Of a DNA stretch of 64,000 nt, positions 9,412 to 63,373 are shown in pieces. Made by a program: the position numbers and the translations under genes. The DNA is from Yuukianura sp. NJ FZ-2021. Taxonomy: Eukaryota. Each line of letters opens with the position of its first letter. Positions within the stretch are counted from its first letter, which is position 1. The notes beneath the pieces are model-generated. The model made no database searches. It was given only the letters and a program-made list of their open reading frames with translations, and had not been told where the DNA came from. The stretch lies in contig CM102285.1 of NCBI GenBank assembly GCA_046563655.1, forward strand, positions 6,510,001 through 6,574,000, given 5' to 3'.

Positions 9412-15197
<5,786 letters not shown>

Positions 15198-22929: not shown

Positions 22930-27252
<4,323 letters not shown>

Positions 27253-31575: not shown

Positions 31576-31612
31576 CGTTGTTTATTTATTCTGGGCCAAA
31601 GAAGTTTAAAAA

Positions 31613-45137: not shown

Positions 45138-46057
45138 TGTTTGGGTGAAATGACAGTTTCATTCTGAAATGGGTGTGTCGGGTTGAGATGATGCCAGTGA
45201 GGAAGCGGTTTTCTTTCTTATTTAAAATAGCATCATCGAATGCTTCCGAACTGGCTTCGGACTCAAGCCCGAACCACAACGATACACTTTTGCACTAGTT
45301 CTTATGGGAAAGATAAATTGTGTGTACTTTTTGTCTTTTAGTAGTATTTCATTCATTCAGAAGTCTTCTGCTGCGTCTCTTTGGTTTAAGACCATAATCT
45401 TAAGACCAGTTTCTCTTTCCATTCAAGTATAACTGTAATTCGATTCATTAGGCAAATAAACTAGTAAAACTTAAATCATCTTCGGATCCAATCAGAACCA
45501 CCCCTCATTCATTTCATGGTCCTTCGAAATCGTGCAATTCGAGTCATCAGTTTCCGTTCTAGCGGACTTAATGAAGACGGTGTCTTTGCGGACTGCTCTC
45601 AAGCCCAAACTTCAACGGGTTGAAGGTGATTTAAAGTCTAAATCGATTGATTACTCTTTAGTAGAATTGCAGGTTTTACTTGATGGAGTGGACAAATACC
45701 AGACTAAGCTGGACAGTATTCAGGAGTCGATGTTCTCCGTCGTCACAGAGCCAGACGAAGTCAATGTCCAAATAGAGGCAGGGTTAGGTTAGGTGGACAT
45801 GCTAGGTAGACATGCTAATTCAGAGCTGCCAGTTTCTCATACGTCAGGGAATCACTGACAAGACGGTGACTACGCCGGTCGTAAGTGAGGTAGCTGGGAC
45901 GAGTTCTGCTAGTAGTGTCAATGGTAACCCAAAAATGAATGCTAAATTGCCTAAACTTGAGTTACCCAGCTTCAGTGGTTCATTTGAGGAATGGATCATC
46001 TTTCGTGACCAGTTCCAGTCACGGATCGTCTCCAATACGTCACTTTCTGGAAGTGTA
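45138..46057 (+). mobile_element. 5' part of a second BEL/Pao element (LTR, PBS, gag start)
   Basis: TG...CA LTR 45138-45516 followed by BEL-type PBS TGGTCCTTCGA. gag remnant includes AKLPKLELPSFSGSFEEWIIFRDQF. Truncated by the LTR insertion at 46058. Confidence 0.85.
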
Positions 46058-46349
46058 TGAGGTCATGGACCTCATCGGAGAGTTAAGTGTTTAGTTAATT
46101 AGAAATTAAGTAGGGCGAATGCCCATAAGTGGTTGTCCCCGGTCTCCCTCCATTTTTTGAGTCGGCAGAGCCGACAGAAGAACACAACCAGATTCTCCTC
46201 GCCTCGCTCCAGCAGATTCTGCTGCCACGCCGTCAAGAGCTCCCTTGGACAGCTCCAGTAGGTAGATAGAGGGGACTTTCACGCCAAATCAACCTTTGGA
46301 CCCATAAGGCTTAAAACCCACTGGCGTGAGATCCTTATGACTTATCAAA

Positions 46350-46600
46350 GTCAGACTAATTGTCTGTGACGACTAATTAACACTTCCGTTGAAGACCAAT
46401 TAAGACTTCCAAGACTAATTAAGACTTCCTGTGACGACTAATTAACACTTCCGTTGAAGACTAATTAAGACCAATTAAGACTTCTAAGACGAATTAAGAC
46501 TTCCTGTGACCCAGCTTAACATTAATTAAGACCAATTAAGACTTCCTAAACTAATTAAGACTTCCTGTGAGCTTAATTAGTACCTTTGTCCGTTAACACC
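46350..46600. repeat. Subterminal TAATTAAGACTTCC(TGTG) motif array of the Polinton
   Basis: More than 10 degenerate copies. Repeated at ~47175-47320 and inverted at ~59475-59610. Confidence 0.85.
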
Positions 46601-47465
46601 TTGGACAAATAGGAATCCATGGGGAGGAGTTTTGGTTATCCAATGAGAGTCCTGAATACCGCGACCAAGACGGTTAAAAGGAGACGATGAAGTCTAAATA
46701 GTCAGTTACTTTGTCAGCTTCACAGCGTCATGGCCATATTTTTCGATTTAAGGGCGAGCCGGTTTCGTGTTTTCGTTGTTTTTGGGAAGCCATCCCGTCC
46801 ATCCCCTAGTCCCTTAGCGAAGGGCTTTTCGATTCCTTATTCTACAGGACTAGAAGTGTCCTTCCCGCTGCCACCAGCTGCCCCCGCGGTATAGGTCATC
46901 GGATACATGGAGTCAAAGGTCAGCATGTGATCACATAATGACCCCATGCAAGTAATATGTCGTTGGAACGGGCTTGACCTCCTGATTCAGAAAATGTATA
47001 CAGGTTGATAGTTCTGACCAACCGTTTGACCTACAGGGGTCATAACATGGATGACCTCTATACTTGCTGGGGTCTAGAAGTAGTAGAAGGGTAGGTAGGA
47101 CTTTCGACTCAAATCAACCTTTGGACCCATAAGCTTTTTTACAGCATGAGTTCTATCCCCAGTCAGCTGGCTAATTCACATTAATTGAGACTAATTAATA
47201 CTTCCTGTAAACATTAATTAATGCTTCCTTCTACAATTAATTAACACTTCCTGTTGCTTCCTGTGACCAATTAAGACTTCCTTTTCTTAATTAAGATTTC
47301 CTGTGACCGAGCTTAATTAGTAACCTTTGTCCGTTAACACGTTGGACAAATAGGAATCCACGGGGAGGAGTTTTGGTTTTCCAGTAACCAATGAGTGTCC
47401 TGAATACGCTTAAATGGAGACGATGAAGTCTAAATGGTCAGTTACTCGGTAAGCTTCACAGCGTC

Positions 47466-47834
47466 ATGGCCATTTTTATCGATTTAAGGGCGAGCCGGCT
47501 GCCTGTTTACCATTTCTTGTCACCAATCTTAAAGCACAAATTCCACCAGGCATTGGACAACTTTGTGGACTATACACAACAAATCAGAACCAAGGAAGGC
47601 TGCAACAGGATTTTTACCGAATACCCGCTACTCCAAGGATTTGAAGACGATCAACATGCTGAATCCATGTGGACGTACATACTTGGAAAATATTCAAATT
47701 CTTTATTAGACTCTTACGTGGCTAATATTGTTGAAAACTTTTCTGCCAATTCAAAGTCAAATCTACTAATTTTTGAAGAAATTTTTGCCATGCAACTTAT
47801 TGTTGCTGCTGTTACTTTTAAGCCGAATGAATAA
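47466..47834 (+). CDS. Hypothetical Polinton protein
   Basis: 122-codon ORF converging on the protease gene, with back-to-back AATAAA/TTTATT at 47830-47843. No recognised motif. Confidence 0.4.
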   Translation: MAIFIDLRASRLPVYHFLSPILKHKFHQALDNFVDYTQQIRTKEGCNRIFTEYPLLQGFEDDQHAESMWTYILGKYSNSLLDSYVANIVENFSANSKSNLLIFEEIFAMQLIVAAVTFKPNE

Positions 47835-47838
47835 AAGT

Positions 47839-48363
47839 TTATTGTTCGCAAAATTTTTTGCAGCACTGAACAGTGCGTGGAAATACAGAGCCAAGTCTAC
47901 AAATTCTTTTCTTTACAAAGTTTACAACAATTTTATCATTTGCTACAGTATCGTTTGTAAAGTTTCTATACATATTTCCAATACATCCATTTTCTTTAAA
48001 TAGCTTATGAAGAAAGTAAATTGTATAGTGACCACAAATATCGCTGGTGATGCTCTGTAGAATTCTATCCGAATCAATAAGTTTTGAAGAATTAATATTC
48101 ACAAAGTTTCTAAATATTTCATTGTAGTTTTCGATTCCTCTTCTATAGGAATCTATGAAAATGATAGGACATGATTTTTCCGCCTGGTAAAGTGTAAGCC
48201 AGTGCTGCCCTGGTTCAGAACTAACATCAGAATTACAAACTAAATACAATGGGTATATTTGAATTTTTAAATTTACAAGCAAGTCACAGGGTATTACATT
48301 AAATGTACAACTATTATCTGACAAGAAGCAGTTCAGGTATATATAAATTTCTTCGGTGTTCAT
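47839..48363 (-). CDS. Adenain-like (C5/Ulp1-fold) cysteine maturation protease
   Basis: N.D....PGQHW, FIDSY and LQS..SDICG carry the His-Asp-Gln-Cys catalytic residues. Confidence 0.9.
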   Translation of the reverse strand: MNTEEIYIYLNCFLSDNSCTFNVIPCDLLVNLKIQIYPLYLVCNSDVSSEPGQHWLTLYQAEKSCPIIFIDSYRRGIENYNEIFRNFVNINSSKLIDSDRILQSITSDICGHYTIYFLHKLFKENGCIGNMYRNFTNDTVANDKIVVNFVKKRICRLGSVFPRTVQCCKKFCEQ

Positions 48364-49694
48364 ACTTCGATTGCTGGAGAGTTTGGAAAATCTTCGAAGT
48401 AGGCGTTCTTGCTTTTATCAATATACAACACTGATTGATACTCAGCATAGACGATAACCGTGACAGACTCGGTTAGAGCTTCTTTAAATGCCAGATCAAT
48501 CTTCACATTTCCGTACTTGGGGAGCGCAAATCCATCTCGAATGTGTCGAAGATTGTAAACTAGCAGAGGATGTCTCTTAAATGTTTCCCGTGTGATATCC
48601 AAGCCAACGCCTTCATTCGAAACTCCGAGTCCTTCAAACAGGTTGTTGTAGAGTTGAATGTATTGATTTTGACTGAAATCCAATTGAAGAGGTAGATACG
48701 TGTTGTCTCCATTTATAGCAACTTCCACACGATTGAGGTTGAAATCTTGAAATCGAAATGGGTTCCTCCTTATATCTCCACTGTAGGCTTTTGAGGAAAC
48801 TAATCCCACAACAATTCGATCTGGTAGTAATCCGCTTAGCACAGTGTCATTCACATCGTTGGTAGCTCAAGTAGCAATAGCATAGGCTTTGAGTTCCACA
48901 CGTTTCATTGGATATGTCGCAGGATTTCCAGCATGGAGCGCTGAAATTGTTGCATTCAATAGTGTAGGCAGAAGAACATGCTTTTTGATCAAAAGCTTGG
49001 CTTCAACAATCCGAACCGTTGCACTTGTCGTTTGTCCAGTAAACAGGCAAAAGGCAGTTGGCGATCTTGCGAATGATACCCGCATATCAATACCAGGGAT
49101 CAAGTATTTGTTTTGAAGAAACAAGTCGCAAAACGGGCGACCAATCATTTCAAACACTTGACTTCCCTTTGTCACTTTGTAGCGTTCACTGAAGCCATCT
49201 TCGTCGGTGGTAAGAACAGATGCTGGATCGTTTTCACGATAGTACAAGTCACATTGAGCTTGTGACTTTTTATACTCTCTGTTGTAAGAAAGTAGAGTGT
49301 CCAAATAGATTCTGTATCCATAATGGTTTGTTGATGGTGTAACCAAGACTTCGTTCAGATAGATGGCTGCTTGTTGAAACATTGAATGCAAAAAGTTGTT
49401 AACTGTTCCCACAACTGTTGCTTCTTCGAGTTGACTTCCATCTGGTTTGACCACTCTGGCTTTAACGCAAAGCTTTGTTTCGCTCAAATCGATAAACTGA
49501 ACATCGTTTGATTGAATGAAGAATTCCAAGGGTGATGTTTGATCACTAATTGACGTGATTGGATAATGCTCTGACGAGTGTGTTGAAACCAGGCTGACAT
49601 CGTAGTGTGGCTCTTGAAACAGTTGTGTCTCTGAACGGATGAATGTAAACGGTAGTGTGGATGGTGCACTTGCTAGTTTTACTCAGAGTGGCAT
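48360..49694 (-). pseudogene. Major capsid protein (double jelly-roll, Polinton PY type), two in-frame stops
   Basis: One frame of 444 codons: MPL*...RSETQLF..HYPI..PLEF..IDLSET..VNNFLHSMFQQ..YGYRIYLDTLL..GRPFCDLFLQNKYL..AIAT*..G.LPDRIVVGLV..NPFRFQ. TGA at codon 4 and at 48867-48869. Confidence 0.9.
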
Positions 49695-49695
49695 T

Positions 49696-50043
49696 TTAGA
49701 ACAGAAACTTTCCGTCAGTTTTCCGCTTCCTTTTCTGATTGCGCTTCCTTCGCTTCCCAGAACCAGACTGATCCATAATCTGTGATCCAACTCTTTTTAA
49801 AGCTTCCCGTCCATGTTCCTTTATCGCAGAGGAAAGTGGTTGCTTCTTTGCAACCATGTCGGTGGCAATACTTGTAATTGCAGATGTTGCATGTGGTAGA
49901 ATAAATTTTTTCAAGAATGGTACAAGATAGCGAGCTACGCTACCAAAGACACCACTAAGACCTCCACCTCGTTGTGTTCGGATGCCGGCAAAATACAGAC
50001 GTCCGTCGTCAAATGCTCCTCCGTTTTGCAAGTGATAATTCAT
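49696..50043 (-). CDS. Small basic virion core/membrane-active protein with QxGG motifs
   Basis: LQNGG, FAG...QRGGGLSGVFGSVARYLVPFLKK (amphipathic) and QSGSGKRRKR. This small-ORF type typically lies between the Polinton capsid genes. Confidence 0.75.
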   Translation of the reverse strand: MNYHLQNGGAFDDGRLYFAGIRTQRGGGLSGVFGSVARYLVPFLKKFILPHATSAITSIATDMVAKKQPLSSAIKEHGREALKRVGSQIMDQSGSGKRRKRNQKRKRKTDGKFLF

Positions 50044-51779
50044 TCCTTTTCTCGAAATTGTAGTGTCACCGTCACACTTCCAAATTGTAATGGCATTCTT
50101 TCACCACTTTCGTTTAATATATACACGTGCACTGTGTCGAATTCTGATAAGGCAAGCTCCATAAAATGAGGATGTATAAATTCATGATGTTGTTGTTCAC
50201 GATTGTTTCCACTGTAGGTTACCACACGAAGACAAGGGGCTAATCTATCTCCAATATACTGAGGTCTGACCAAATTACAATAAACAAATAATTTGGTATT
50301 TCCCGCTGTAAGGAATATAGGGTAAGCCCCTACACCTTCGCACTTATGAAGACCAGAGACCTTGACCGGAGATTCCGCTTCATCCTCACTGGGGGAGGAC
50401 TCTGCTTCAGTTGTCTTGTCAATTGAAGATTCCTCTGTAATTTCTTTGGAGGTTTTTCTTACTTCATGCAGTGGATTTTCCCCAGGTTTTACCAGTGGTT
50501 GATTTTCTTCGTGTATGGACACAGGTTTTGAGACTGGTTCAGTTTCCTCAAGATTAGATTGAACTGGCTTGTCGGGTTTAACTGGTCTAATTTCAGGAAT
50601 TTTCTCAGATGGAACTGGTTGAACTTCCTCAGCAGTTGGTCGAATTGCATTGCTAGTTTGCGAAAGGGCAATTGGTTCTCTCATTGACTTGTATATAGTT
50701 CCTTCCGGTAAATTGTAGTTGTATTCTTTAGCTTCTCGGAAAACCGTAGTTTGTGGAATTCCAAATAGTCGGTTAATTTCTGGTGTGAAGAAGGCTTGCA
50801 TTTTAGAAGTTCCTTTCCAAAGAATTCTCACGGTGTTTTGATTCATGAATATGTAGATGGGAATATCGCTACTTCTGCATATCTTGTTTATAGTGTTCAC
50901 CAGGTCTTCAATGTTGGCCACTGCGGAACTATGGACCTCGTATTTTTTTGATTTCCTCGGGCTTGAAAACAAGAAGGCGACAGATCCTTCATAATTATTG
51001 AGGTCTGTAACGTTGAATTCCCGTTCGGCTGTATAATCTTGAGTCAGCAGAAACTCATTTTCTGAGAAACCCAAGAGGTTGGCAAAATCCTTTGGATATA
51101 TTTCCACCTTTCTGTACTGTTGATTGTACATGCGCATGATGATTGTACCAGTCTTGCTCTCCAGTTGAATGCCATTGTGTAGTAACAATACATTCATCGG
51201 GGTGAAAAACCTAGAGAGCGAATTAGCTCGCACTTTATTGAATCCAGTTTTTGTACGTTTCGCTGCCTCAAAGAAATGAATTCCATTTCCATCTCGAATT
51301 TGGAGTTGTTGTGGTGCTTGATCATGTTGTATATATTGGCGATGTGATCGGCTACTTGTCAACTTCTCACTAGGCAAGCCCAACAAGTCCTTGATTTTTT
51401 CGGTCACTGTGATGACTTCTTTTGGGTTACTCAACTCGATGCTATATTCCAATACGTTGTTGTTGATTGAAAATGTCGAATTTGGAAGAGCAGTCCTGAG
51501 AACATCGAGCATTTCGTCCTGGGTTGTAACATCTGTTTTGCTTCGCAGATCAGTTTCAGTAACAGAGTTCAGCTCCCATCTTCTCGTAAACAGCAATTCG
51601 TCTTTACTTATAATGGCCAATCCAGCGGTGTAGCTAATGTCTGTCATAGCGACCTCCCATCGTCCAGGTGGGAGGGATATAAAAGTCCCAAGCCTATTTT
51701 TAAACTCTGGAATTGTATTGTCTTCATAAATCTTTGTTGACGCGTTTGACTGAAGAGTAACATAAAAGGATTGAACCAT
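50040..51779 (-). CDS. Minor capsid protein (penton, PX), extended 579 aa
   Basis: N-terminus SFYVTLQSNAS..NT..F..L....WEVAM and C-terminus LFVYCNLV..Q.IGD..APCLRVV...FDTVHVYI.NE.GE...F.SVTVTLQFR are the PX jelly-roll ends. Confidence 0.88.
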   Translation of the reverse strand: MVQSFYVTLQSNASTKIYEDNTIPEFKNRLGTFISLPPGRWEVAMTDISYTAGLAIISKDELLFTRRWELNSVTETDLRSKTDVTTQDEMLDVLRTALPNSTFSINNNVLEYSIELSNPKEVITVTEKIKDLLGLPSEKLTSSRSHRQYIQHDQAPQQLQIRDGNGIHFFEAAKRTKTGFNKVRANSLSRFFTPMNVLLLHNGIQLESKTGTIIMRMYNQQYRKVEIYPKDFANLLGFSENEFLLTQDYTAEREFNVTDLNNYEGSVAFLFSSPRKSKKYEVHSSAVANIEDLVNTINKICRSSDIPIYIFMNQNTVRILWKGTSKMQAFFTPEINRLFGIPQTTVFREAKEYNYNLPEGTIYKSMREPIALSQTSNAIRPTAEEVQPVPSEKIPEIRPVKPDKPVQSNLEETEPVSKPVSIHEENQPLVKPGENPLHEVRKTSKEITEESSIDKTTEAESSPSEDEAESPVKVSGLHKCEGVGAYPIFLTAGNTKLFVYCNLVRPQYIGDRLAPCLRVVTYSGNNREQQHHEFIHPHFMELALSEFDTVHVYILNESGERMPLQFGSVTVTLQFREKE

Positions 51780-51825
51780 GTTGACAACTTGAACACGACT
51801 GATGATTTATTACAGTGTTTCGTAA

Positions 51826-52563
51826 TTATATAGACAACCACCGTCCACCGTTTTGCCGTACTCGTTTCATTGCTGGTGTGTCATCTAGTACAGCGGCATT
51901 CATGTTGAGACTTCGACGTAGTCTTCGCTTCATGTTAACTTATTGAGAGCGATGAAGTGGTTCTGTAGGTACAGGAGAGAACGAATGTGCCGGTGTAGTG
52001 TACTCCTCTGTAGTCGGTGTAGTTTCTCCTTTTTCAAGTTCCAGATACGCACGCATTTCTCTTGGAATATTCTCCACGGTGGACAGAATAACATCTACAG
52101 CATCCTCCATTCCAAAGGGTGTAATGTATTGTGAACTGTCTTCAATTTTGATAATGTGTTGTAAGATTTGGATTATGCTCGATCCTGGATATCTCACTCC
52201 ATCAATGATAATTTCAAACTTCTCGTTGTATTTAATACGGGCTAACTTCATAAGATTTAAAATTTTCTCTGTGATATTTCTGTATGATTCTCCAACTTCT
52301 TTGAGGATATACGGTTTTGATAGTTCCAGAAAAATGTCATCTTCGCTCGAACTAGCGCTTGACACCTTTGTTACATCCTTAACAAGAAGAGGCTTCTGAC
52401 TGTCAGCTTTAGCTGTTTGGAGTTGTCGCCGCAATTGATCCAGATAAAAAAGATTTTTGATCTCCGTAGGAACATCAGTCGCTAGTATTTCTCCCAGTTT
52501 TGTCTTAGGACTTCCTTTCCACTGCAGATATTCAGCCTCAGGTATTAACCGCATACGACGCAT
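51826..52563 (-). CDS. Conserved Polinton protein (MRRMRLIP...IDG..YPGSSI), probable premature stop at 51940
   Basis: Motifs match a common Polinton accessory ORF. The frame continues past TAA to ...RQNGGRWLSI*. Confidence 0.65.
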
Positions 52564-52564
52564 A

Positions 52565-52900
52565 TTACTGGTTCAGGAGTTTCTTCTTCACGAGCGAGAA
52601 AGCTGCCGGCATTAGCGAACCAAGTATGAGAGGTAAAATAGCTTCTCCTCTCTGGCTCAAGAGCTTTCGTTTAAGATCCACTGATAAGCTCGGCTTTTTG
52701 CCTATCGTCCGTATCGGTCTTTCAAACTTCATTAACTTTTCCAGGACGGATGGCGTGACCGGAACGTTCTTTCGATACACGTTGTAGATGAGTTCACAAA
52801 TGCTGACAAGTTCCTCTGGGCTAGCGGTTTGTAAAAGAGCCTTTCTCTGCTTTGGTCCACACTTTGCTAAATATTTTAGAAAGTGTTTATTCGAGAGCAT
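52565..52900 (-). CDS. Conserved small basic Polinton protein (putative core protein)
   Basis: L..L....PKQRKALL..A....L..ICE..YN....VP and KRKLLSQRG..LP.IL pattern. Confidence 0.75.
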   Translation of the reverse strand: MLSNKHFLKYLAKCGPKQRKALLQTASPEELVSICELIYNVYRKNVPVTPSVLEKLMKFERPIRTIGKKPSLSVDLKRKLLSQRGEAILPLILGSLMPAAFSLVKKKLLNQ

Positions 52901-52938
52901 CCGGCTAGGCGTGGTGACGCATTACCGACTAGATTACG

Positions 52939-53000
52939 ACTGACTGTACAATTTAATAGCTCGGGTATATAAAGAAATTTCTCAGTCTCACTTGGTCAGT
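52939..53000. promoter_or_regulatory. Bidirectional TATA + TCAGT initiator promoter
   Basis: TATATAAA at 52966, with TCAGT 30 bp downstream on + (52996) and 28 bp downstream on - (52943), between divergent ORFs. Confidence 0.65.
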
Positions 53001-53003
53001 CGA

Positions 53004-53441
53004 ATGGGTTGCATTGCTAGCTTTGGATCCTATTTGTGTTCTCTGCTGAAAAACAACAGTGAGTTTTCGGTTTGTCAAAACTGCTCCTTCAATGTCGAAA
53101 TAAACAAAATGGAAGACGAAAATGGTCAAGACGCAATTGGGGAGGACGTGTATCAGGACGTGTTGGATATCATGCAAAAAAAGAAGAAGAAGAACGATAT
53201 TGTGAGCACGCCAACCGTGCTTCACGTTCAACGTTCAGCTCGAGGGTCGCCCCCGAAGCCCCAAATCCTGATGGATGGAGGATGGTCAATTTCCTTTGGT
53301 GATGAAGTGGGAATTGTCTCGTCCAGCCCTACCCACATTCACATTAGGAATATTGAAGACTCAAGTATTGGAATCGCAATGAAGATTGATTTATTCGGCT
53401 GCTTGTTGCATAGTATGTTAGAACTTAAAACGTACTACTAA
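53004..53441 (+). CDS. Hypothetical Polinton protein
   Basis: ORF directly downstream of TATATAAA + TCAGT. Stop overlaps the ATPase stop. No recognised motif. Confidence 0.5.
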   Translation: MGCIASFGSYLCSLLKNNSEFSVCQNCSFNVEINKMEDENGQDAIGEDVYQDVLDIMQKKKKKNDIVSTPTVLHVQRSARGSPPKPQILMDGGWSISFGDEVGIVSSSPTHIHIRNIEDSSIGIAMKIDLFGCLLHSMLELKTYY

Positions 53442-54082
53442 TACAATTTCGAAGTTGAATAAACACTACACAATTCTGGAAATATATTTGAACGGATTCG
53501 ATGATCGTCATTCTGTTGTTGAGACATGTCCAAATGTATGTAGCTGTTCGGTTTATTCCTTGTGAGTTCTTCATAGACCGTTCGCAAAATTCCCTCCTTT
53601 CCTCCATTCATCTGACGACTTGGGTTGATTATGCTCGTGTCTCTTGGATTCCGGAATAGCGTTATGTACTTGCTGTAGAGAGTGAGCGTTCGACAATTCT
53701 TGTAGAAAAAGTTTTGGAGTGTAATTATAATGGACATCGATCTATGGCTGGATCCTCTGGTGCACATTGAGCAAACGTCTTTGGATTGTGAGGCCTCCTC
53801 CATAAAGTCGTCCAAAATCACTAATGTTGGAATGGTGTTTCCTTCAGGTACATCAACGAGTAGACCTTTTTGAAAGTGTATTGCATCTCTCAATGCAGCC
53901 TTTAACTCTTCTGCAAAAGGAGGCTCATCTTCATTGTAGCAATACAACACTCGTTCAATGTGAGGATAAATTATTTCATCCTTTCGTAGTATCAAGTCCT
54001 TTATCAGGGTGCTCTTTCCGCACTGTGTAGGACCAGCGCAAGTCATTACAAATGGGTGGTGTAGACGATAGTCATATTCCAT
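53438..54082 (-). CDS. A32/FtsK-like genome packaging ATPase
   Basis: Walker A GPTQCGKS, Walker B LVILDD, R..SHRSMSIIITLQNFF and FRNPRD. Confidence 0.93.
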   Translation of the reverse strand: MEYDYRLHHPFVMTCAGPTQCGKSTLIKDLILRKDEIIYPHIERVLYCYNEDEPPFAEELKAALRDAIHFQKGLLVDVPEGNTIPTLVILDDFMEEASQSKDVCSMCTRGSSHRSMSIIITLQNFFYKNCRTLTLYSKYITLFRNPRDTSIINPSRQMNGGKEGILRTVYEELTRNKPNSYIHLDMSQQQNDDHRIRSNIFPELCSVYSTSKLY

Positions 54083-54145
54083 CTCGAAGGCTGGATGACA
54101 ACTGAATATAATAGTCGGAAGAGTCAGAATTTATTCAGTTTGAAA

Positions 54146-55061
54146 ATGGCAAGCAACATAGCAACACGTTGGACGAGCTTGAAAAATCCTGGGAGCTTTA
54201 GCGGCGTGTCAAATTTTAATCCAAAAGGTTTCAAGGACAAAGTGAGACATGAGCTGAAGAAGATTCCTGCGTATACTCTACATCACCCAGTCATACGGCG
54301 GTTTCCACGGAGGAAGGTGATGGTTAGCGGGATAACACGAACAATACTCTATGGATTTAAAGGACATCCGGAAACATTCAACAGCCAACTTTAAGAAAAA
54401 ATATCTTCTGGTTGTTATAGACGTATTTTCAAAGAAAGGCTGGATTGAAGCCATACCACGGAAAACTGGCGTTATTGTCACCAATGCCTTGAAGGAGATA
54501 TTTCAACGAAGCGGCTCTCTTCCGAAGAGAATCAGTGTCGATGAAGGAACAGAATTTCTGAACCAGACTATGAAAAATTATTTGAAGAAGAAAGGAATCG
54601 ACTTGTTTTGGACACATTCCCCTCTCAAAAGTGTTGTGATAGAACGATTTATTCGAACCCTGTTTTCAAAGATTCAGCGTTACATGACACATAACAACAC
54701 AAAGAGATGTGTCAACAGGCTTCATGATTTTGAAAAGCTATACAATAACACTTATTATAGAAGTAGAAAGATGGCACCGAACAATGTCACTAAAGATAAT
54801 GAACAACTAGTACATAGTTATCTGTATCCTGAAAAGCCAGTGGATCACACGCCGCCTAAATTTTCCGTTGGAGATAGGGTTTTAGCGGCTAGGAAAAAGA
54901 AGACATTTGAGAAGGGTTATTCACCCAACTATTATGATGAAGTTTATACAATTGTAAAAATTCGAGAAACAATTCCTAGAGTTTACATGTTAGAAGATCC
55001 TGAAGGCGTGCCAATCTTAGGAGGATGGTATGAAAATCAACTTGTCAAAATAAATTATTAA
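54146..55061 (+). pseudogene. Retroviral-like (rve) integrase of the Polinton, one frameshift near 54335
   Basis: PGSFSG, YTLHHP..RRFPRR, then MDL..YLLVVIDVFSK, SVDEGTEF, VIERFIRTL, FSVGDRV and FEKGY..GWYENQL. Confidence 0.92.
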
Positions 55062-58000
55062 ATGTCTCTATGTCCAAATGCTAATGTGTTAATTCTATCA
55101 ATACCATATCGTTTAGTATCTAAACCGTTTAGCGCCCTTTTTAACGTTACTTCTGTGAAAATTCTATGTTCTACACTTCGAAACCCTCTCATCCATACAC
55201 GAGTTTGAACATCTTTCTTGAGGACTTTCTCAAAATCTTCATAAGCTATTTGGTTGTTGACAGCTGTTTTAGTTATCCCTTTGACCTTCTTCGTGTATTC
55301 GTCTTTGATGAACCAGCTACCATCAGTCTTCTCTTGGTAAATATTTTTTCCATCAAATCCTTTGTAAACTTGTAGCTTTAAGGATCTAATTGTGTACATT
55401 TTTGGACGTGGACAAACGACATGAGTGACTACCGAACCGGCAGCCTCATCTTTGAATTTTCCCAAAACTTTTTTGTTTGTGGGATCGTGAAACTCTCCGA
55501 AAATGGGGTGATCGGATTCATATTCGCTCATGTCATACAAGTCCTTGTCTTGGCGCATGTCTTGATAAACGTCATCAGTTTGGATGTGATAGATGAAGGA
55601 ATCTGAAATAAAAACTTAGCTTTAGTTTAAAGTTAAATTGTTGAACAGTATAACATTTACCTGTGTCAGTATAAATAAGGCGACACTTGTCGACGCCGTA
55701 TTTCGCCTGTATAGTGTAGTGATGTCGATACATCATGCTCTTTGCCAGTTCAAGCACTGTTACCCCCGTAAATATCGGTTTGTTCAAAGTAACTTGAAGC
55801 CTCTTCATCATAAAGATGCATGTTGACTCGTTAATTGGGATGACATTCTGAACGGTGGGTTTCTTGTTGTAACGTAGAGCTTCTTCCATTGATGTAACGA
55901 TACGGACATTCTGACGCTTGCGTACTTGGTCGATTGTTTTACCAAATGCAGAATTGTTGAGGAGTTTCCAATAATCCTTTTCAAAGTCTGACTTTGCCTT
56001 TTTTCTCATTTTGGTGTTAAAGTCGATAAAGTCCTTCATCCATGGTCTCTGCTTGAAGGAAATTCCGCGGTGAAGTTTTGTAACTTTAACTCCAAGCATC
56101 AGGTACTCCATCAAAATGGCGTGATGTAGAATATAGTTTTTCTTATTGTTTAGATCTGCCACAAGTTTCTTAACTTTGAAAATTCCAGGACCTATGTCGA
56201 GTTTTTCCGTCAATTGTAATTGGTGACTGGACAGCTCGCTCTGTGCAACCGTACGGTTAACTGGAGCTGGAGGAAAATCATTCAGCTTGTCATGCAATAA
56301 AGGGTCAATTTCCAAATCCACTTCAAGCATGTATCCTTTTTCATCGTCCATGATGAAGTGGTTTTCTTGAAGTCTCCTCAGCTCTTTCTCTGTTAGCCAT
56401 TGGAACTGACCAGTTGGAAGCGGAAGACTCATGCTTTTGCCCTAGTGAATAATTAAATTTTAGATAATAATCTTTCATAGACGTTGTTGAATACTTACAT
56501 ATAAGTTGTTGGCATCGATGTAGATGAGGTAACTGGATTCCTTTTCTGGATCGTATTCATCTCCCATGTACTTGTTGTTCGCTCTAGCCTCTCGCATGGA
56601 TCCAACGCTAACGTATCCACCTATAAATAAAATGAATTAGAAAGTCTCTACCATTTGTCTGCTAGGTTTTACCTCTAATAGCATGCTCCAGCCAGCAATG
56701 CATGGTTGGATCCGTGATTAGCTCCAATTCCACTCCTGATTTCTTGAGAACGCAATCCATTGCCATCTTTGGCAAAGAGAAGTAATGGGCCAGGTCCAAT
56801 TCGTAAGCATCAAACATTATTTTTCGGATTCCTTCCATCACATCAGCCAGAAGCGATACCTCTAGTCTGACGTATAAGTCATGCCAATCTCCCATGTCTT
56901 GAATGTTGAAGTTCTTCCAGACTTTTTGAGCGTGCTCGTACAATTTATCATCAATGTGTGACTCTGTCAAGTCATTGTAGAAATCTTCTTTTGGTGGTAG
57001 ATTTTTGATTTTGAAATCTTTACAAGACTTCATGAGAGAATAAGGGTAAACACCCTTATTGAAGAGAAGCTCAATGTCATCGTATTGTGCAAACTCCTGT
57101 CTTGTGATTGGAAATTTGGCATTGGGATCAGCTCGCATCACTTTCACTAATTTGTCCAAGGATTTCAGTGTAAATCCAAGACTGTCTGTAAACCTCAGCT
57201 TGAAGGGCTTTTTCTGCCAGCGAGGTGGTTCTTCGTCCTCATCGACATCATCGTGGTTTGCGGGAACGATACTCATGGACATATATTTTTCACTGCTCTT
57301 AGGGATAAAAGTGATGTCCTTGATGATACCGTCCTGCTTTAGCTTTCCAGCAGATTGCACAATGAAGTGAACGTCATAGGATGAAAAGTTGTGCATGAAG
57401 ACGGGAGACTCCTTTTGATTTGTGCTTGGAGGTTGCAGTCTTGATGAGCCATTCCGATATAGTTGAACGGTGGAAGATGTGAATGGTGTCGCACTTTAGT
57501 CCCATCCAATGTCTTCCTGCAGAAACAACAATTTTTTTCCATTGCAGCAGCACTTCTTTGTGCTGGAGTCAGATTAAGCATATCTGGTGCAATTTTTTCA
57601 TAGTAACGCACTTCCTCTTCCAGTGTTTTGGAGTACTCAGTAATGTTTTGAATAAATTTGGCGGCAACGTCTTCGTCATCGTTAGTGATATGATAATATT
57701 CACCATGTCGTCGTTTTCCATTGAAGTCTACGCAAACCCATGCATATCCACATGGCTTGTGTCGGTGAGTGCAACACTTATTTACAGGTTGAACTGGTCT
57801 TCCACGTATTTGTTCTTTGAGTTGTCGGCGCTCCTCCTCTTCTATAGTTGATGGATTAAATTTTGGCAGAAAAGCTTCGAAGTCTGCGTAGAATCGAAAT
57901 GGTGCTGGCTGAGTTCTATCCCACTTGTTGAACGCCAATTTGTTGTCTGTAGGATATACAACTTTTTGAAGATCCAAGGAAGCGCAATACTGGAGGTGTT

Positions 58001-59274
58001 GTTGTAGAGTCTGAGATGATTGGAAATTGGAGAGACAGTTGCGGCAAATATGCTTGACTTTGTGATCATTTGGGGCTCTCATTAATGCCTCGAAGTTCCT
58101 AATAAGAATGAAGTGGGCATTGTTTTCTTGCATTAGACACATCAAGTCCACATGTATTTCCTTTGACTGTTGTGAGTTGTACAGTATTGAGATCTTGCTC
58201 TGTATAAAATTGAATGATTCAATTTTGCTCAGCTTCTGAAAACCCATGTCATCACCATCCATGTCATAACAGAGAACAGTTATAGAAATGTTCGGGTTGA
58301 GTTCTTCAAAGCGAGGGATCTGCTCCAAAGTCATCGGAAAATGGAGTCCTTTAGTGTTCAACTTGCATTCCTTTGGGTGGTATGTTTTCACAAGCTTGTC
58401 AATACGGCACCTATGGTTATTTTTTCCAACCGGAATACCACCGATTTTGTCATGCGCGAGTATTGACCAGACGAAGCATTTGTTGTGGGAATTGTCCATT
58501 GACACTTTGCTGTTGTTGATGTTAAGCAGAACTTTTTGAGTCGATAGTGGGTACGGGGTCTCCATGTATGTACCAATCTTGGTGAATCGATACTTTGATG
58601 TGACAAATCCAAATTTCTGAATGGAGTCCAGAGTCCAGCCGCTGCCCTCATTTGTGAAATCTTCAATTTGATCTGACATTTGACTGCACATGACTGACCA
58701 AACTTTAGGTAGCATGGTTGCATTGAAGACAAGGTGTCGAAATGAGGTGAATCCGACATCCTTTGATTCAACCGTTCCATCTGCGTGCGTTTTGGTGAAG
58801 TGACACCCCAAGGTAAAAAATATCCTTAAGTTCTTCATAGGATGATTGCTTAACATTTGCGAAAAAGTCTCTCTCGTCGACACCTTCACCACATGGAAAT
58901 GTATCAAAGTCTGCCATGTACTTGCGACTCATTTTTAGAGATTCCAGCACTAAAGTCACAGATATGGGATCGGTTGAAATTCCTCCGCCAACTTGAATGT
59001 TAAAGTCTGGATGAGTTGTGTAGAAATGTTCTTGAAGCTTATTCCGACAATTAAAGGAAATTCCGCATTGCCAGCAGAACAAATGGCGATATTCTTGTAG
59101 CGTACTCTCAGCTGTGGCATCACAACCTGGTGGTGCTGGTTCAAAACAGTTCTTATGGACAGTGTCAACATGTAGTTTTAATAATGGTCGAGAGGTAAAT
59201 CCATGACCGCACAGAATGCAGTTAAAGAGTTTACTAGGTCGACCAACAATTGATGTTCCTTGGCGCTTCGACAT
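55058..59274 (-). pseudogene. Protein-primed family B DNA polymerase with three spliceosomal introns and two frameshifts
   Basis: Exons 59274-56673, 56620-56499, 56441-55661, 55602-55058. N-terminal C2H2 fingers, EGSGW, exonuclease YADFE / HNFSSYD / KGVYPY, endonuclease-VII-like CxxC..RHH..AHxxCN insert, IRGG, DANNLYG, KLLNNSAFGK, YTDTDS. Frameshifts near 58850 and 57405. Confidence 0.95.
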
Positions 59275-60725
59275 TATGACAATAGCAAGTGTTTAGGACA
59301 ATAAGGATCTTAGGAGTGTTGAGGAGTTGTGTAAAGACTGAAAGTCTCCGTAAAAGTTGGTGGTATTATATCTCTAGTCGGAGCCGACCCCCAAAGCTGA
59401 CCCCCTAAAAGACTGGGTGAAGGTATAGCCGTTTTCCTTCCTTTGTGTTCCTCCTCCCCAACGGACAAAGGTGCTAATTAGTGTTAATTAATGTTCACAG
59501 GAAGAGTTAATTAGTTTTGGAAGTCTTAATTGGTCTTGAACGGAAGTGTTAATTAGTCTTAATTAATGTTCATGCTGGTCCCAGGAAGCATTAATTAGTC
59601 TTAATTAATCTGAAAGAACCCGCCCACGTCCACCCGGTACATCAACCTCTGGTTCCTGGAGGAACAGCTCATCCACAACTTAATCCCCCGTCCTCCAAAA
59701 CACTATTCCGGCATCTAATTCACACGAAACTCATCAACTCTTAATTCTCCGGTATTCCAATTCCACCGCTAAAATAACTAGTGCTACCTCCCGTATTTCT
59801 CCTCCGTGATCAACTGGTGAAACCAAACTAAAATACACTCGATTAAAATACCTATTTTAACCTTTCATTCACCCTCATACACAAGTACAACCCAGTTTTT
59901 CTACGCTAAGTTTTAAGTTCCAACTAGTATTACCTTACCAATTACCGATTACTATAAGTTCAGCTCGAAACAAAGTGTAACTTGATAGGGCAATTGCCAA
60001 TGTCAAATAAACTAATTGATTGATTGATTAATTAATTTGACTTGTAGGATCTCACGCCAGTGGGTTTTAAACCTTATGGGTCCAAAGGTTGATTTGGCGT
60101 GAAAGTCCCCTCTATCTACCTACTGCTCCTCCGTCACTGTCAAATGGTCAACTGCAGAGAGGTCAACCAGGTCAGATCGGCAGACCAGCGATTGGTGCTA
60201 GGCCAGTGATTGGCCCTGCCAGTGATTGGCATTGTTGTAGCCAGTGATTGGCTTTGGTTTGGCCAGTGATTGGCCGGGAGCCTGCGATAGGCTTTTCCCT
60301 TCCCCCGGATCGGCGTTGGGTTAGTGTATGGCCCTTCAGGCCCTTTCGTTTAGCCCAAAGGGCTTAGTTAGTGGTTAGTATGTGAGAGAGCTACGATTCA
60401 ATAAATCGTAGCCCAAGAGATCATCGGTTTTTGCTCGTTTTTGTTTCATTTATTCATTGTGGGATTGAGCAGTGCGGAGAGGCACTGCTCAAGCCTCATA
60501 TCTGGTGCCCCGAGCCTTAACTGCCCCTTCAGATTCATGAGCATTTTAGTAAAATGGATGATTGATCACAGATCAATCATCGATTTTTGTAAAAATACCG
60601 CAAAAATCGGTTCGGATGCCGATCACTGGGTAGCGGAAGGCATGGTTTTCCCATTTTGTTCATAAGCAAGTGCAAAGTTCGGTTTTGCGCATTTGTGGTA
60701 AACACGTATTTTTGATTTCTCCTTT

Positions 60726-61743
60726 TTAGTGTTCTGGAGACGCACGTCTACGACGTGCTGAAGAAGACTATTGATACGACTTTGTCTGTCCGTCCGTCCG
60801 TCTGTCCGTAACGTTTTTTAGCACCCTTTTCACTGAAACATAAGCCCCATCGCAGTCGGGGGGTTATCTCTGGCTTAAGTGTTCTCGTTAGGTCTGCATT
60901 GCACTCAAAGTCGTACATTAACAACGCCAAAGTATGCGGCTGCTTTACGTACCCGCAGTATCGTGGCTCCGCAATACTGTTTTGGTTTCGATTACACTCA
61001 AAGTATTTATAAACAACGGAGTTTTGATCTGGTCATTTTCTGGCAGCATGTTTAATTGCGTTGTTAAATTAAGACTGATCAGAGGGTAGAAAATCCGGCT
61101 TAAATGTTTAATATGTGAATAGTGCATAAAAGGGGTCAAATTTGCATTTACTAGACATTTTATAATTCCGATTTTAACAAGCGATATTCGAGCCGTCACG
61201 CAAGCGTTCGTTTTTGTGCAGGATGCACACTTATGACCAACAGGGATACAAAAACGTTGAATTGTGCATTTACATAAACCAATTTTGATTTTTAGGAAAC
61301 GGCATTCGATCCCCCACTCCCCCAACGTTCAATTTTGTGCATGCTTGAGAACAAGTGCATCAAAATAATTTTGAACAGACTCAAATCTGAGCCAAATTAT
61401 AATGTATTGCCATAGCAACATCGATAATACATTGTGTGTATCTTGCTCAACAAATTAACAACATCAATTCAGTGCAGATATTGTGGACCTCAAAACTGAA
61501 ACATGACTTTGGTGCAATTAAACTGTAAAATTGCCAAGACAATTTTAGTGCAACTCATGCACACAATAAGATCTCACATTCACACTGAAAATTTTTATAT
61601 AGCTACGTTTTAGAGCATCAATTCCATGAAAACGGTTTCTCAGTTCGTCCACCGTTTTGCGGTAGGCCGGTCTCAATGTCGTGTCAATTGCGAACTCCCT
61701 CCAGAAGACCAATGCTCAACCCTTGAGCATCGCCCTACCTTGT
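60726..61743 (+). mobile_element. HINE / DINE-1-like element, copy 2
   Basis: Same subTIRs, GTCY repeat and GCTCAAcccTTGAGC hairpin as copy 1. T-run flanks. Confidence 0.85.
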
Positions 61744-62330
61744 TTTTTCGTCGAGCGCGGTCCGAACCCCGATCCAACTTTCCGCTTTCAATTTTTATTT
61801 TCAGTAAACTCAATTACTAATTAAATGTGGAAAGTTTAAATGCATAATTAACCATTGTTAATTAATTCCTGAATTCTAAATTCGCGTTTTTGTTTCTTTT
61901 TTGGGTTATCTCATGGTTTTTACTCGCAGTCCGAGTAAGCATTAGCAAATATAGTAACGGAGATACCCTCTCACACCGCGCTCAGATCGGTCAAACTTGT
62001 GCGCCGCGCTAGCGCTCTCTCATTTGATTTAACGGTTTTTTCTGCTACTCCAAAAACAGAAACAGATTTTTTTGGATTCTTTTGTAACGATGGCAGTTAG
62101 TGGTAACTGTTTACTAAAAGAAAATAGGTCAAGCCCCCCCTCCCCACACCCCCAGCCCTTGTCCGTTCACCCCGCTCAAATCCAGTTTACCCAATAGGGC
62201 ATGTGGTGGTGTGAAAGAAAGAAGAAAAAATTAAAAAAAATTATTAATTATACTAATAAAGTAAATTTAAATTGTTAATTAAGTTATTGTTAAATCTAAT
62301 TTATAAACTTAAAGAAAAACAAATAAAAAA

Positions 62331-63373
62331 ACAAGGTAGGGCAATGCTCAAGGGTTGAGCATAGGTCTTCTGGAGGGAGTTGACAATTGATACAACATTT
62401 AGACCGGCCTACCTCAAAACTGTAGAAGAAATGAGAAACCGTTTTCATGGAGTTGTTGCACCAAAACGTCGCTAAAAAGTTTCAGTGTGGATGCGAGGTC
62501 CTATTTTGTGCATGAGTTGCACCAAAATTGCGTTGGCTGTTCTACCATTTAATTGCACCAAAATCATGTTGCAGTTTTGAGACCCAAAATATTTGCACTG
62601 AATTGATGTTCTTAATTTGTTGAGCAAGATGCACGTAATGTATTGTCGGGGTTGCCATGGCAATAGACCATTAGCGAAAAGAGCGTAAACCAAACACCCT
62701 CAAAATAATGATATTGAAATTGAGATTTGTGCATGATGCACAAATTTGAACCCTGAGAAGGATGGATCGAATATACCTTCTTTTAAATCGAAATCGGTTC
62801 ATGAAGATGCGCATAATGTATTGTCGATGTTGTCAAGGTATGCTCAAAGTAGTTCTCAAACCTGCACAAACCTTCAATTGTGTGCATCATGCACAAAATT
62901 GTACGTTGTGGGGTGGGGTTCGAATATCGCTTGTTTATAATCAAAATTATAAAAATTTCTTGCAAAGGCAAATTTTAACCCTGCCAAGCACTGTTTCCAT
63001 ATTATGAGTTTCAGCCACATTTTCTACCCAGTTAAGTTTTAATTTAACAACGTGATTAAACTAGCTGTCAGAAAATGACAGGATCAAAACTTCGTTGTTT
63101 AAATATATTTTGAGTGTAATCGAAACCAAAATGTTTCCGAGAAACGACTGCACTTAGGGTGCATAAAGTGGCCGCCCATTTGCACGTTGTTAATATAACA
63201 CTTTGAGTGCAATGTAGACTTAATGAAAACACTTGAGGCATACGTAACCCCCCGCCAAAAATGGAGCTTATGTTTCAGCGCAAAAGATCCTAAAAAAGCG
63301 AACGGACGGACAGACAAAGTCGTATCAATAGTCTTCTTCAGCATGTCGTAGACATGCGTCTCCAGAAGACTAA
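62331..63373 (-). mobile_element. HINE / DINE-1-like element, copy 3
   Basis: Reverse-oriented copy: caaggtagggcaatgctcaagggttgagc...ggacggacagacaaagtcgtatcaatagtcttcttcagc...ctccagaagacta. Confidence 0.85.

Follow-up and report, generated by a model that had tools for sequence, protein, structure and literature searches.

An endogenous Polinton in the Yuukianura genome combining an endonuclease VII-type polymerase with a PLA2-less capsid block

The available text of the adintovirus study Starrett 2021 (PMC8502044) presents PLA2X as the hallmark of the capsid module usually paired with the Alpha class of PolB, and interprets elements in which an Alpha PolB is joined to Beta-class virion modules as products of horizontal transfer. 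The marks of Alpha PolB in that study are a pfam03175 match, an OTU-like domain at the N-terminus and strong BLASTP matches to bidnavirus PolB; those of the Beta (Terrapene-type) virion module are a hexon and penton that cluster with their Terrapene cognates, GasderminX and Cupiennin-like genes, and a lack of PLA2X. The accessible sections of Jeong 2023 (PMC10748475) describe replacement of the protein-primed polymerase (pPolB) in otherwise similar Polintons and, in C. briggsae, near-identical capsid modules together with different polymerase classes in one genome; according to the accessible part of a preprint (10.64898/2026.10.13.758929), replication and morphogenetic modules often re-associate. 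Nothing on polymerase-capsid incongruence was found in the accessible part of the coral polintovirus paper (PMC11131425). The motifs NNLYG, SLYP and NALYL were not found in the supplements of Starrett 2021 and Jeong 2023, and a full-text literature search for 'F54H12.2' returned no paper.

Here, we explored a 64,000-nucleotide stretch of contig CM102285.1 of Yuukianura sp. NJ FZ-2021 (the window), in which the first-pass annotation had seen a polymerase-swap recombinant lineage. The region is an adintovirus-like provirus integrated in an animal chromosome. We consider it probable that this endogenous Polinton holds an old, shared and already described pairing of modules and is no new chimera, the re-assortment within its family not being placed on the window lineage.

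A single Polinton/Maverick of 13,868 bp (13.9 kb) occupies positions 46257-60124, its limits being set by terminal inverted repeats (TIRs) and a target-site duplication, and extends past the earlier limits of 47839..59274 out to the TIRs at 46257-46335 (forward strand, starting with AGTAGG) and 60046-60124 (reverse strand). The TIRs are 79 nt long; in the repeat search they form an 80-nt pair, 99% complementary with 60046-60125, in which 79 of 80 positions match (one mismatch). GCTCC stands at 46252-46256 and again, directly after the right TIR, at 60125-60129, which makes a 5-bp target-site duplication; in Polintons/Mavericks this duplication is usually 5-6 bp long. Inside the left TIR, Tandem Repeats Finder detected a forward-strand subterminal array of 19-23-bp repeats with the core TAATTAAGACTTCC (46364..46570), and repeat pairs connect it to inverted matches at 59475..59623, a reverse-strand array with the same core. 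The whole left terminal unit is present in a diverged second copy at ~47070-47510 (three-way alignment A5). A 122-aa ORF of no assigned function (47466..47834, forward strand), with no Pfam match at E≤10, faces inward from the left end, and the outer terminal unit contains a second copy of its start, at ~46731. Besides these ends, the features found for membership in the Polintons/Mavericks are the PF03175 polymerase, the rve integrase, the adenain-like protease and the double jelly-roll capsid protein, the last recognised through a relative (P0005) that is 57% identical to the window protein.

The copy is decayed and, as it stands, non-functional, because three core genes are broken: the capsid gene by two in-frame TGA codons, the polymerase and integrase genes by frame changes. 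The frame changes sit in short homopolymer runs and could be assembly errors. Reading TGA as a sense codon was considered and rejected: none of the other genes of the element contains this codon in frame, and adjacent ORFs of the host and of retroelements can be read normally in the standard code.

The pPolB gene (55058..59274, reverse strand) was delineated from its PF03175 match, a tblastn search with four full-length relatives and the reading of splice sites. It comprises C2H2 fingers, an N-terminal (putatively TP/vOTU-like) region, an endonuclease VII-like segment, Exo and Palm; the Exo piece matches PF03175 with 27.1 bits (cut-off 25.8), and the Exo and Pol motifs align with those of 43 full-length relatives. 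Three GT-AG introns (56672-56621, 56498-56442 and 55660-55603) interrupt the gene, all three with a GTAA donor and a T-rich acceptor, so that the locus yields, as a by-product, clean spliceosomal introns within a Polinton polymerase gene. Two frame changes are located near 57417-57420 and within 58.8-58.93 kb; none of 17 GT-AG candidates that might explain the first as an intron has this donor and acceptor pattern. Introns at or beside motif A occur in two polymerase classes, that of the window and that of a related locus, L006, and might be a sign that such elements have long been inherited vertically in host genomes and expressed through host splicing. The best polymerase match is 51% identical (palm exon), and the named relatives are three beetle proteins, two from Sitophilus oryzae and one from Harmonia axyridis, which carry PF02945 or PF03175.

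The polymerase features listed in the first-pass annotation are all present, with qualifications. The residues of its DANNLYG motif are present but not contiguous, since the 57-nt GT-AG intron at 56498-56442 separates DANNLY from GKSMS; NNLYG is the norm of the family, found in 32 of the 43 database polymerase matches. Two patterns within 58771-59292, the first ORF piece of the polymerase, bear out the C2H2 fingers, although the matches to Pfam zf-C2H2 are weak (E 5e-4 and 9e-4) and do not reach the curated cut-offs. As for the proposed endonuclease VII-like insert, it lies just before Exo I (~57420-57530) and keeps the CxxC...HxH...CN columns, which do not vary across the 13 rows of alignment A3, window copy and PF02945-positive relatives included, but the window pPolB has no match to PF02945 (Recombination endonuclease VII) even at E≤10. 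In the window, RHHSH stands in place of the family consensus DHDH, both acidic residues being changed. Among relatives, P0128, P0129 and P0134 pass PF02945 with 24.9-27.1 bits against a cut-off of 23.6, the polymerase of locus L002 reaches 16.8 bits, under the cut-off, and precomputed PF02945 annotation is attached to 16 of 39 polymerase matches in one search and 1 of 4 in another. A profile of the polymerase family compared with solved structures recovered C2H2 zinc fingers only, and neither a phi29-type polymerase nor endonuclease VII. The N-terminal region contains a Cys motif, NKCFVWS, common to relatives; a Pfam match to an OTU domain was not found, the N-terminal polymerase piece giving nothing significant at E≤10.

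Adjacent to the polymerase, an rve-family integrase (54095..55061; PF00665, 46.9 bits against a cut-off of 32.6) is encoded on the forward strand, opposite to the other genes, and is inverted beside the polymerase, unlike in loci L001, L003 and L006, to whose integrases it is 34-36% identical. Its frame shifts near 54332-54336, and both pieces match one unbroken ORF in L001. Next to it, on the reverse strand, lies the gene of a putative FtsK/A32-type genome-packaging ATPase (53438..54082; 214 aa) with the Walker A motif GPTQCGKS. Its Pfam scores fall under the cut-offs (Pox_A32, 20.8 bits against 22.8; AAA_14, 22.9 against 27; Adeno_IVa2, 16.4 against 21), and L001, L003 and L006 have ATPase ORFs with 30-32% identity at the same position.

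The structural genes, all on the reverse strand, follow the first-pass description closely. The major capsid protein (double jelly-roll; 48360..49694, ~444 codons) shows the announced 'SExxLF' signature as SETQLF (family consensus RSETDLF) and has 240 homologues, the best matches being 52-57% identical. Its in-frame TGA codons are at 49685-49683 and 48869-48867; at the column of the second, a sense residue stands in 24 of 24 homologues (alignment A1). With stop codons in the window protein, the fold test was run on P0005, whose model (pLDDT 84) matches the capsid proteins of SGIV, PBCV-1, Sputnik and mavirus with E values of 1e-12 to 1e-16, those for the first three being about 1e-15; against the viral library, the best match is a Cotesia bracovirus protein (BFVD R9XLG5; 27% identity, E 1.5e-25, TM-score 0.38). 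Atlas clusters related to the capsid family, retrieved with a 271-aa capsid ORF and P0038 as queries, are commonest in Arthropoda. The product of 50040..51779 (579 aa) is predicted, from its position and the literature, to be the penton (minor capsid) protein, and the expected 'FYVTLxSNAS' reads FYVTLQSNAS at its N-terminus. This segment and the C-terminal ~95 aa match ORFs of 260-300 aa in L001, L003, L005, L006, L010 and L014, and the ~420 middle residues of the window protein are missing from these relatives. The adenain-like (clan CE) cysteine protease (47839..48363; 174 aa) was likewise confirmed: a profile of this ORF and five locus homologues matches ASFV pS273R (E 4.3e-8) and adenovirus protease/adenain (E 2e-4), with invariant His (GxHW) and Cys (CG) columns.

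Three smaller proteins complete the block. Between the penton and capsid genes, 49696..50043 encodes a 115-aa protein that bears two xGG motifs along with an amphipathic stretch and has a basic tail; homologous ORFs occupy the same place in L001, L005, L014, L015 and L017. Caerin_1 is its sole Pfam match and falls short of significance (E 0.28). The protein is probably a precursor, either of the core or membrane-active, that the protease processes. At 52565..52900 lies a 111-aa protein with a hydrophobic C-terminal tail and homologous ORFs in L001, L003 and L006 (E 6e-10 to 4e-12). Of the QxGG proteins claimed earlier, the 115-aa protein thus has xGG motifs, and for 52565-52900 it is the relatives that have QxGG, ahead of the tail. 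Finally, a conserved 207-aa protein of no assigned function (51940..52563; alignment A4) is weakly homologous to the ORFs that L006 (E 4e-5) and L004 (E 1e-3) carry at this position. A gasdermin-like domain in this family found no backing in a poor model (pLDDT 61) with 0 PDB matches at E≤0.001, and no GasderminX was recognised in the window element. The reported lack of a PLA2 gene holds: of the 89 stop-to-stop ORFs in 46257-60124 with ≥50 aa, none matches a PLA2 family, and the element has no HDxxY motif; the YxGxG...HDxxY pattern was not found in 7 related loci either.

How such a capsid block is paired with polymerases can be judged from those related loci, 7 of 19, in which a polymerase lies beside the capsid gene, a small sample made up entirely of animal-derived contaminant contigs in bacterial MAGs. 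One of the seven polymerases belongs to the window family, four are of the DxNALYL type with a VSR-like insert and two are of the DFTSLYP (DxxSLYP) type, so that one capsid family adjoins three deeply different polymerase classes, and this linked-locus set is itself a by-product of the analysis. The first-pass view that this capsid set goes with DxxSLYP polymerases therefore applies to only two of the seven loci, DxNALYL polymerases with the VSR-like insert being found in four. PF03175 cannot separate the three classes, because it is also matched by L001 (36.8 bits) and L012 (73 and 68 bits). In L005 and L014, the polymerase piece is on the opposite strand, after the protease, and could belong to a neighbouring element.

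The pairing of the window recurs in L002, where a window-family polymerase (35-42% identity, three ORF pieces) stands directly upstream of window-family penton, capsid and protease genes. Within a class, polymerase and capsid diverge about equally (37% and 34% identity, respectively, between the window and L002; 42% and 46% between L001 and L003), whereas between classes polymerase identity is 23-24% and capsid identity 43-45% (24% and 45% between L001 and L002). Because capsid and polymerase similarity are decoupled in this way, modules have very probably been exchanged somewhere in this capsid family. The case for exchange draws on the decoupled distances and the different domain inserts, and tree support for it is weak. 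In the polymerase tree (quick method), the NNLYG family includes both the window and L002, and L001+L003 and L012 are on very long branches. In the capsid tree, the clade holding the loci has short inner branches, the two DFTSLYP-type loci do not group together, and an AU test on the capsid alignment did not reject the grouping of the window and L002 against the four loci with other polymerases (p 0.283). The window's own clade comprises 19 rows with support of 100/100; for the 18 closest capsid relatives in it, the polymerase type is putative, taken from similar identity ranks only. The near-equal distance of the nearest relatives (capsid 57%, polymerase 51%) fits a long-stable pairing. Thus, the polymerase-swap proposal is partly supported: exchange is indicated at the level of the capsid family, but the evidence does not point to the window lineage as the recombinant, given the same pairing in L002 and the outcome of the AU test.

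Alternatively, the window could represent a distinct recombinant lineage, in which an insect-type (Alpha, DANNLYG) polymerase replaced the native one of a capsid module normally paired otherwise. Such a history, which we consider unlikely, would agree with the beetle relatives of the polymerase that carry PF02945 or PF03175, with the occurrence of other polymerase classes in six of the seven linked loci, and with the inverted integrase next to the polymerase, a rearrangement at the module border unlike the arrangement in L001, L003 and L006. It would also agree with the lack of PLA2: the statement in the first-pass annotation that DANNLYG polymerases normally go with a PLA2-bearing capsid set is matched, at the level of the Alpha class, by the available text of Starrett 2021 (PMC8502044), where Alpha PolB usually accompanies the PLA2X module and exceptions are explained by transfer. 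However, the pairing is shared with L002, which the AU test does not separate from the window, and the nearest relatives are similarly identical for both modules. Similarity to L001, L003 and L006 is the same for the integrase as for the capsid, so that the integrase shows no separate history. Furthermore, given the prevalence of Arthropoda among the related Atlas clusters and the Cotesia bracovirus protein as best viral-library match of the capsid (27%), the capsid family may be ordinary in the hosts of the polymerase family. In any exchange, either the polymerase or the capsid module may have been the incoming one.

At the other extreme, exchange might never have occurred, the three polymerase classes having co-diverged with the capsid family from an ancient ancestor; polymerases would have evolved faster and acquired their different nuclease inserts, and capsid genes would have remained conserved. 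The AU test allows a capsid tree that follows polymerase type as regards the window and L002, and the short inner branches of the capsid clade fit as well; C2H2 fingers at the N-terminus and an OTU-like Cys motif are found in the L001 polymerase as in the window family, and the VSR-like insert is common to L012 and L001/L003. Against this, the drop in identity between classes affects the polymerase and spares the capsid, the two DFTSLYP-type loci stand apart on the capsid tree, and replacement has been described for closely similar elements in the accessible text of Jeong 2023 (PMC10748475), which together make strict co-divergence quite improbable. An assembly artefact joining two different elements is hardly credible: one matching TIR pair and one target duplication enclose all the genes, GC content hardly varies along the element (0.39-0.41), and L001, L003 and L006 have their genes in the same order, even though such joins do occur in assemblies, as in L002, which looks chimeric, its Polinton part abutting bacterial-looking ORFs from ~8.6 kb on, and the frame changes of the window lie in homopolymer runs.

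We thus favour an old and shared pairing. From the gene content, TIRs and target duplication, which are all that is observed, we infer every functional step by analogy: in an intact relative, the integrase would cut and join the TIR ends into host DNA, pPolB would replicate the linear genome, using its own N-terminal domain as primer, and the vOTU-like domain would free the terminal protein; the capsid protein, penton and packaging ATPase would then build and fill an icosahedral capsid, after which the adenain-like protease would process the small xGG-bearing precursors. As found, the locus is mainly one more degraded member of a reported combination; a fresh recombinant would instead have provided a dated example of re-assortment of replication and capsid modules in animal Polintons. 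It is also doubtful, in our estimate, that the union of the window capsid clade with an endonuclease VII-type, intron-bearing polymerase represents an independent replacement, apart from the published nematode/oomycete and marine cases; if true, one capsid family would have hosted at least three polymerase classes.

Among the Polintons with exchanged pPolB1 and pPolB2 of nematodes, molluscs and oomycetes, as described in the accessible text of Jeong 2023 (PMC10748475), capsid and other genes are similar and polymerases only 16-24% identical, much as in the present loci, and nuclease inserts in the polymerase are common to both sets; L001, L003 and L012 have the VSR-like insert, as does marine pPolB2. 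The window pPolB likewise has a nuclease-like segment, of the His-Me/EndoVII kind, and stands apart in the arthropod origin of its named relatives. Since the relatives are from arthropods, for which Table S2 of the same study, as available, counts 14,772 pPolB1 and 0 pPolB2, the window polymerase is more likely pPolB1 than the HNH-bearing pPolB2, an assignment based on published descriptions and counts. Comparison with the Cotesia bracovirus Maverick (R9XLG5) concerns the capsid only, through P0005, 57% identical to the window protein; panel A of Fig. S2 in the accessible material of Starrett 2021 (PMC8502044) lists 'Cotesia wasp bracovirus circle 31' among Alpha-PolB elements, which may be the same element as R9XLG5.

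The closest counterparts, as far as the accessible text of PMC8502044 describes them, are adintoviruses that join an Alpha PolB to a Beta virion module, exemplified by a Parasteatoda house spider contig: like the window element, they combine a PF03175-type polymerase with an rve integrase, hexon, penton and adenain, without PLA2X; their OTU-like N-terminal polymerase region and FtsK-type ATPase have putative equivalents in the window element, and the small gene between penton and hexon in the window sits where the Beta map (Fig. S2) has 'Cupiennin'. The window differs in its inverted integrase beside the polymerase, its polymerase introns, its degraded state and the lack of a recognised GasderminX. 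The likeness to the Beta (Terrapene-type) virion is one of gene content, and a place of the window capsid in the Terrapene class, as against that of Mayetiola, is putative. A PLA2-less, 'F54H12.2-like' capsid block together with a polymerase of EndoVII type and PF03175 class is a mix of an already described kind.

A six-frame reading with the standard code reveals a compact virus-like gene block at 47839–59274. The minus strand carries genes for a protease (47839–48363), the major capsid protein (48360–49694), a 115-aa xGG protein (49696–50043), a 579-aa penton (50040–51779), a conserved medium ORF (51940–52563), a conserved small ORF (52565–52900), a packaging ATPase (53438–54082) and a large protein-primed DNA polymerase (55058–59274). 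An rve integrase gene (54095–55061) runs on the plus strand, inverted relative to its two neighbours, the ATPase and polymerase genes; in L001, L003 and L006, three capsid-related loci on other contigs, the integrase is co-oriented and stands between the relative of the medium ORF (a 207-aa family) and the penton. The capsid protein, recognized by homologue search and the fold of a relative, has 240 detectable homologues (best, 57% identity), including one from Folsomia candida named 'F54H12.2-like', and the model of the 57%-identical relative (pLDDT 84) matches the double jelly-roll capsids of iridovirus, PBCV-1, Sputnik and mavirus. As the first-pass annotation had claimed, the protease is adenain-like, its profile finding ASFV S273R and adenain, and PLA2 is missing, with neither the family nor its catalytic motif present among the 89 ORFs of at least 50 aa. 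The penton is 579 aa long in the window versus 260–300 aa in related loci and aligns with them only over ~60 residues at the start and ~95 at the end; the extra ~420 residues (about 75–490) include a long acidic, proline-rich stretch.

A repeat search showed that the gene block is flanked by inverted repeats of 80 nt (46256–46335 and 60046–60125) that are 99% complementary. Read directly, the sequence of each terminal repeat starts with AGTAGG, and GCTCC stands directly outside both termini (46252–46256 and 60125–60129); the element therefore spans 46257–60124 (13,868 bp) and is bordered by a 5-bp target duplication. Inside both ends, the core TAATTAAGACTTCC recurs in inverted orientation in arrays of 19–23-bp repeats (46364–46570, 47192–47308 and 59475–59623). 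These may serve as binding sites for a protein of the element, be it the integrase or the polymerase through its zinc-finger/terminal-protein part, and TAATTA doubles as a core of the homeodomain type. The left terminal unit is duplicated in tandem (46257–46790 and 47070–47510); it comprises the TIR core, the subterminal repeats, ~200 bp of conserved sequence and the beginning of a 122-aa ORF. The right TIR matches the outer copy at 99% and the inner one at about 77%.

The surroundings are those of an animal chromosome. Exons for an MCM AAA lid (E 9e-30) and an arfaptin domain (E 2e-18) lie at 14567–15040 and 23991–24839, the remnant of a Tc1/mariner-like transposase lies at 30636–31664, and a BEL/Pao LTR retrotransposon with Peptidase_A17, DUF1759 and integrase zinc-finger domains occupies 39807–44401 on the minus strand. 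A second gag-like fragment in the opposite orientation (45475–46060, plus strand) lies immediately left of the Polinton, and just to its right is a foldback of about 2.7 kb (60716–61748 and 62326–63383) built of nested inverted repeats with arms of 85–281 nt and 74–92% complementarity.

The capsid gene is interrupted twice by an in-frame TGA, at codon 4 (49685–49683) and at 48869–48867, the latter in a column with a sense residue in all 24 aligned homologues. The integrase frame changes near 54332–54336, its two pieces matching one continuous ORF of L001, and the polymerase frame changes near 57417–57420, where an intron is ruled out because homologues align without gaps across the change, leaving no room for one. 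A second polymerase frame change lies somewhere within 58.8–58.93 kb, an interval with no convincing intron candidate. The element is thus a decayed copy, unless the frame changes, which sit in short homopolymer runs, are assembly errors.

The DANNLYG motif of the polymerase, previously reported as such, is nowhere contiguous in the window. Instead, the DNA encodes IDANNLY, followed by 57 nt running from GTAAGT to CACTAG (56498–56442, minus strand) and then by GKSMS, so that motif A is predicted to be completed by splicing directly after DANNLY. Two further minus-strand introns, 56672–56621 (52 nt) and 55660–55603 (58 nt), restore the conserved motifs AIRG|GYVS and YTDT|DSF, all three introns being canonical GT-AG. 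In L006 (about 1–200), motif A of a different polymerase class (DFT...SLYP) is likewise interrupted. NNLYG is typical of the window's polymerase family, being found in 32 of the 43 database matches, with variants in 5 and the pattern not found in 6. The reported C2H2 fingers are borne out by two patterns in the first polymerase ORF piece, with weak Pfam support. The endonuclease-VII-like insert, directly before Exo I, stands with qualifications: the invariant CxxC, HxH and CN columns are kept in the alignment with relatives, the consensus DHDH has lost its acidic residues, and Pfam gives no PF02945 match at all in the window copy, although relatives pass the cut-off.

For genomic context, a single scan of prokaryotic genome contigs with the capsid alignment yielded 19 loci, which are animal-derived contaminant contigs in MAGs. 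A polymerase adjoins the capsid gene in 7 of them; the remaining 12 are short or show no polymerase, including L004 (21 kb), in which none is detectable. L002 encodes the window's polymerase family (YIDMNSLYS; 35–42% identical across three pieces, with a weak PF02945 match), L001, L003, L005 and L014 a very different polymerase with DxNALYL and a VSR-like insert, and L006 and L012 a DFTSLYP-type polymerase with a strong PF03175 match. Outside the polymerase, the genes that L001, L003 and L006 share with the window are 27–42% identical to its own; the polymerases of these loci can hardly be aligned with that of the window. Capsid and polymerase similarity is decoupled across loci: pairwise identities are 46% (capsid) and 42% (polymerase) for L001–L003 and 34% and 37% for window–L002, with 45% and 24% for L001–L002, 43% and 23% for L002–L003, and 37% and 24% for window–L001. 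In L002 (8600–17827), the Polinton part, which has polymerase, penton, capsid and protease but lacks ATPase and integrase, borders on long ORFs of bacterial-looking residue composition, e.g., an aldo/keto-reductase-like start. This points to either a chimeric assembly or an element cut short. The VSR-like insert (DG[WF]C...Y.[FY]HGC) before motif A is common to two otherwise different polymerase classes (L001, 3–4229; L003, 2–3058; L012, 6895–8001), and N-terminal C2H2 fingers occur in the L001 polymerase as in that of the window, hinting at domain-level shuffling among polymerase classes.

In a careful capsid tree of 42 rows, the window falls inside a 19-row clade (100/100) whose other members are database matches, and the loci form its sister group. 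The free tree implies 3 changes of polymerase type versus a minimum of 2, and the AU test does not reject a capsid tree that groups the window with L002, apart from L001, L003, L006 and L012 (difference in log-likelihood 5.55, p 0.283). The polymerase tree, built with a quick method, carries a warning of long branches meeting. Identity to the closest database relatives is similar for the capsid (52–57%) and the polymerase palm exon (51%), which fits a stable capsid–polymerase pairing in the window since its split from them. The decoupled distances and the domain architecture make a polymerase exchange within the capsid family likely, but topology does not prove it, nor can it be assigned to the branch that leads to the window. 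The features first read in the element (genes, motifs, no PLA2) are confirmed, whereas their interpretation as a polymerase-swap lineage, pairing a DANNLYG polymerase with the PLA2-less virion module of the other Polinton group, is partly supported, as an account of the family's past and not of the window's own lineage.

The window's kind of polymerase–capsid mosaic is already published. In the adintovirus scheme of Starrett 2021 (PMC8502044), Alpha PolB is defined as the pfam03175 type and the usual Alpha virion module is marked by PLA2X; in some Alpha-PolB contigs described there, Parasteatoda being one, the virion module is of the Beta class and includes Cupiennin and GasderminX, a mix read as horizontal transfer. 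The window resembles these contigs in three respects: its polymerase class, the missing PLA2 and the presence of a small gene that separates penton from hexon. A fold search with the 207-aa family found no GasderminX. Jeong 2023 (PMC10748475) describes pPolB1/pPolB2 replacement and HNH and VSR inserts. Given that Table S2 of that study lists 14,772 pPolB1 and no pPolB2 for arthropods, the window's beetle-related polymerase is probably pPolB1. The VSR-bearing polymerases of L001 and L003 resemble the marine pPolB2 described there. Among Atlas clusters near the capsid family, Mollusca and Arthropoda are the most frequent sources, and the best viral-library match for the capsid is a Cotesia bracovirus protein. 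Both are hints that this capsid family is ordinary in arthropods and widespread in the hosts of the polymerase family. For mechanism, we adopt the TP-vOTU-EXO-PALM layout as given by Krupovic et al. 2024 (PMC11161782). Frequent re-association of replication and morphogenetic modules is argued in a 2026 preprint (10.64898/2026.10.13.758929), and the capsid–polymerase decoupling across our loci is the same kind of evidence as that presented for polymerase replacement in Jeong 2023.
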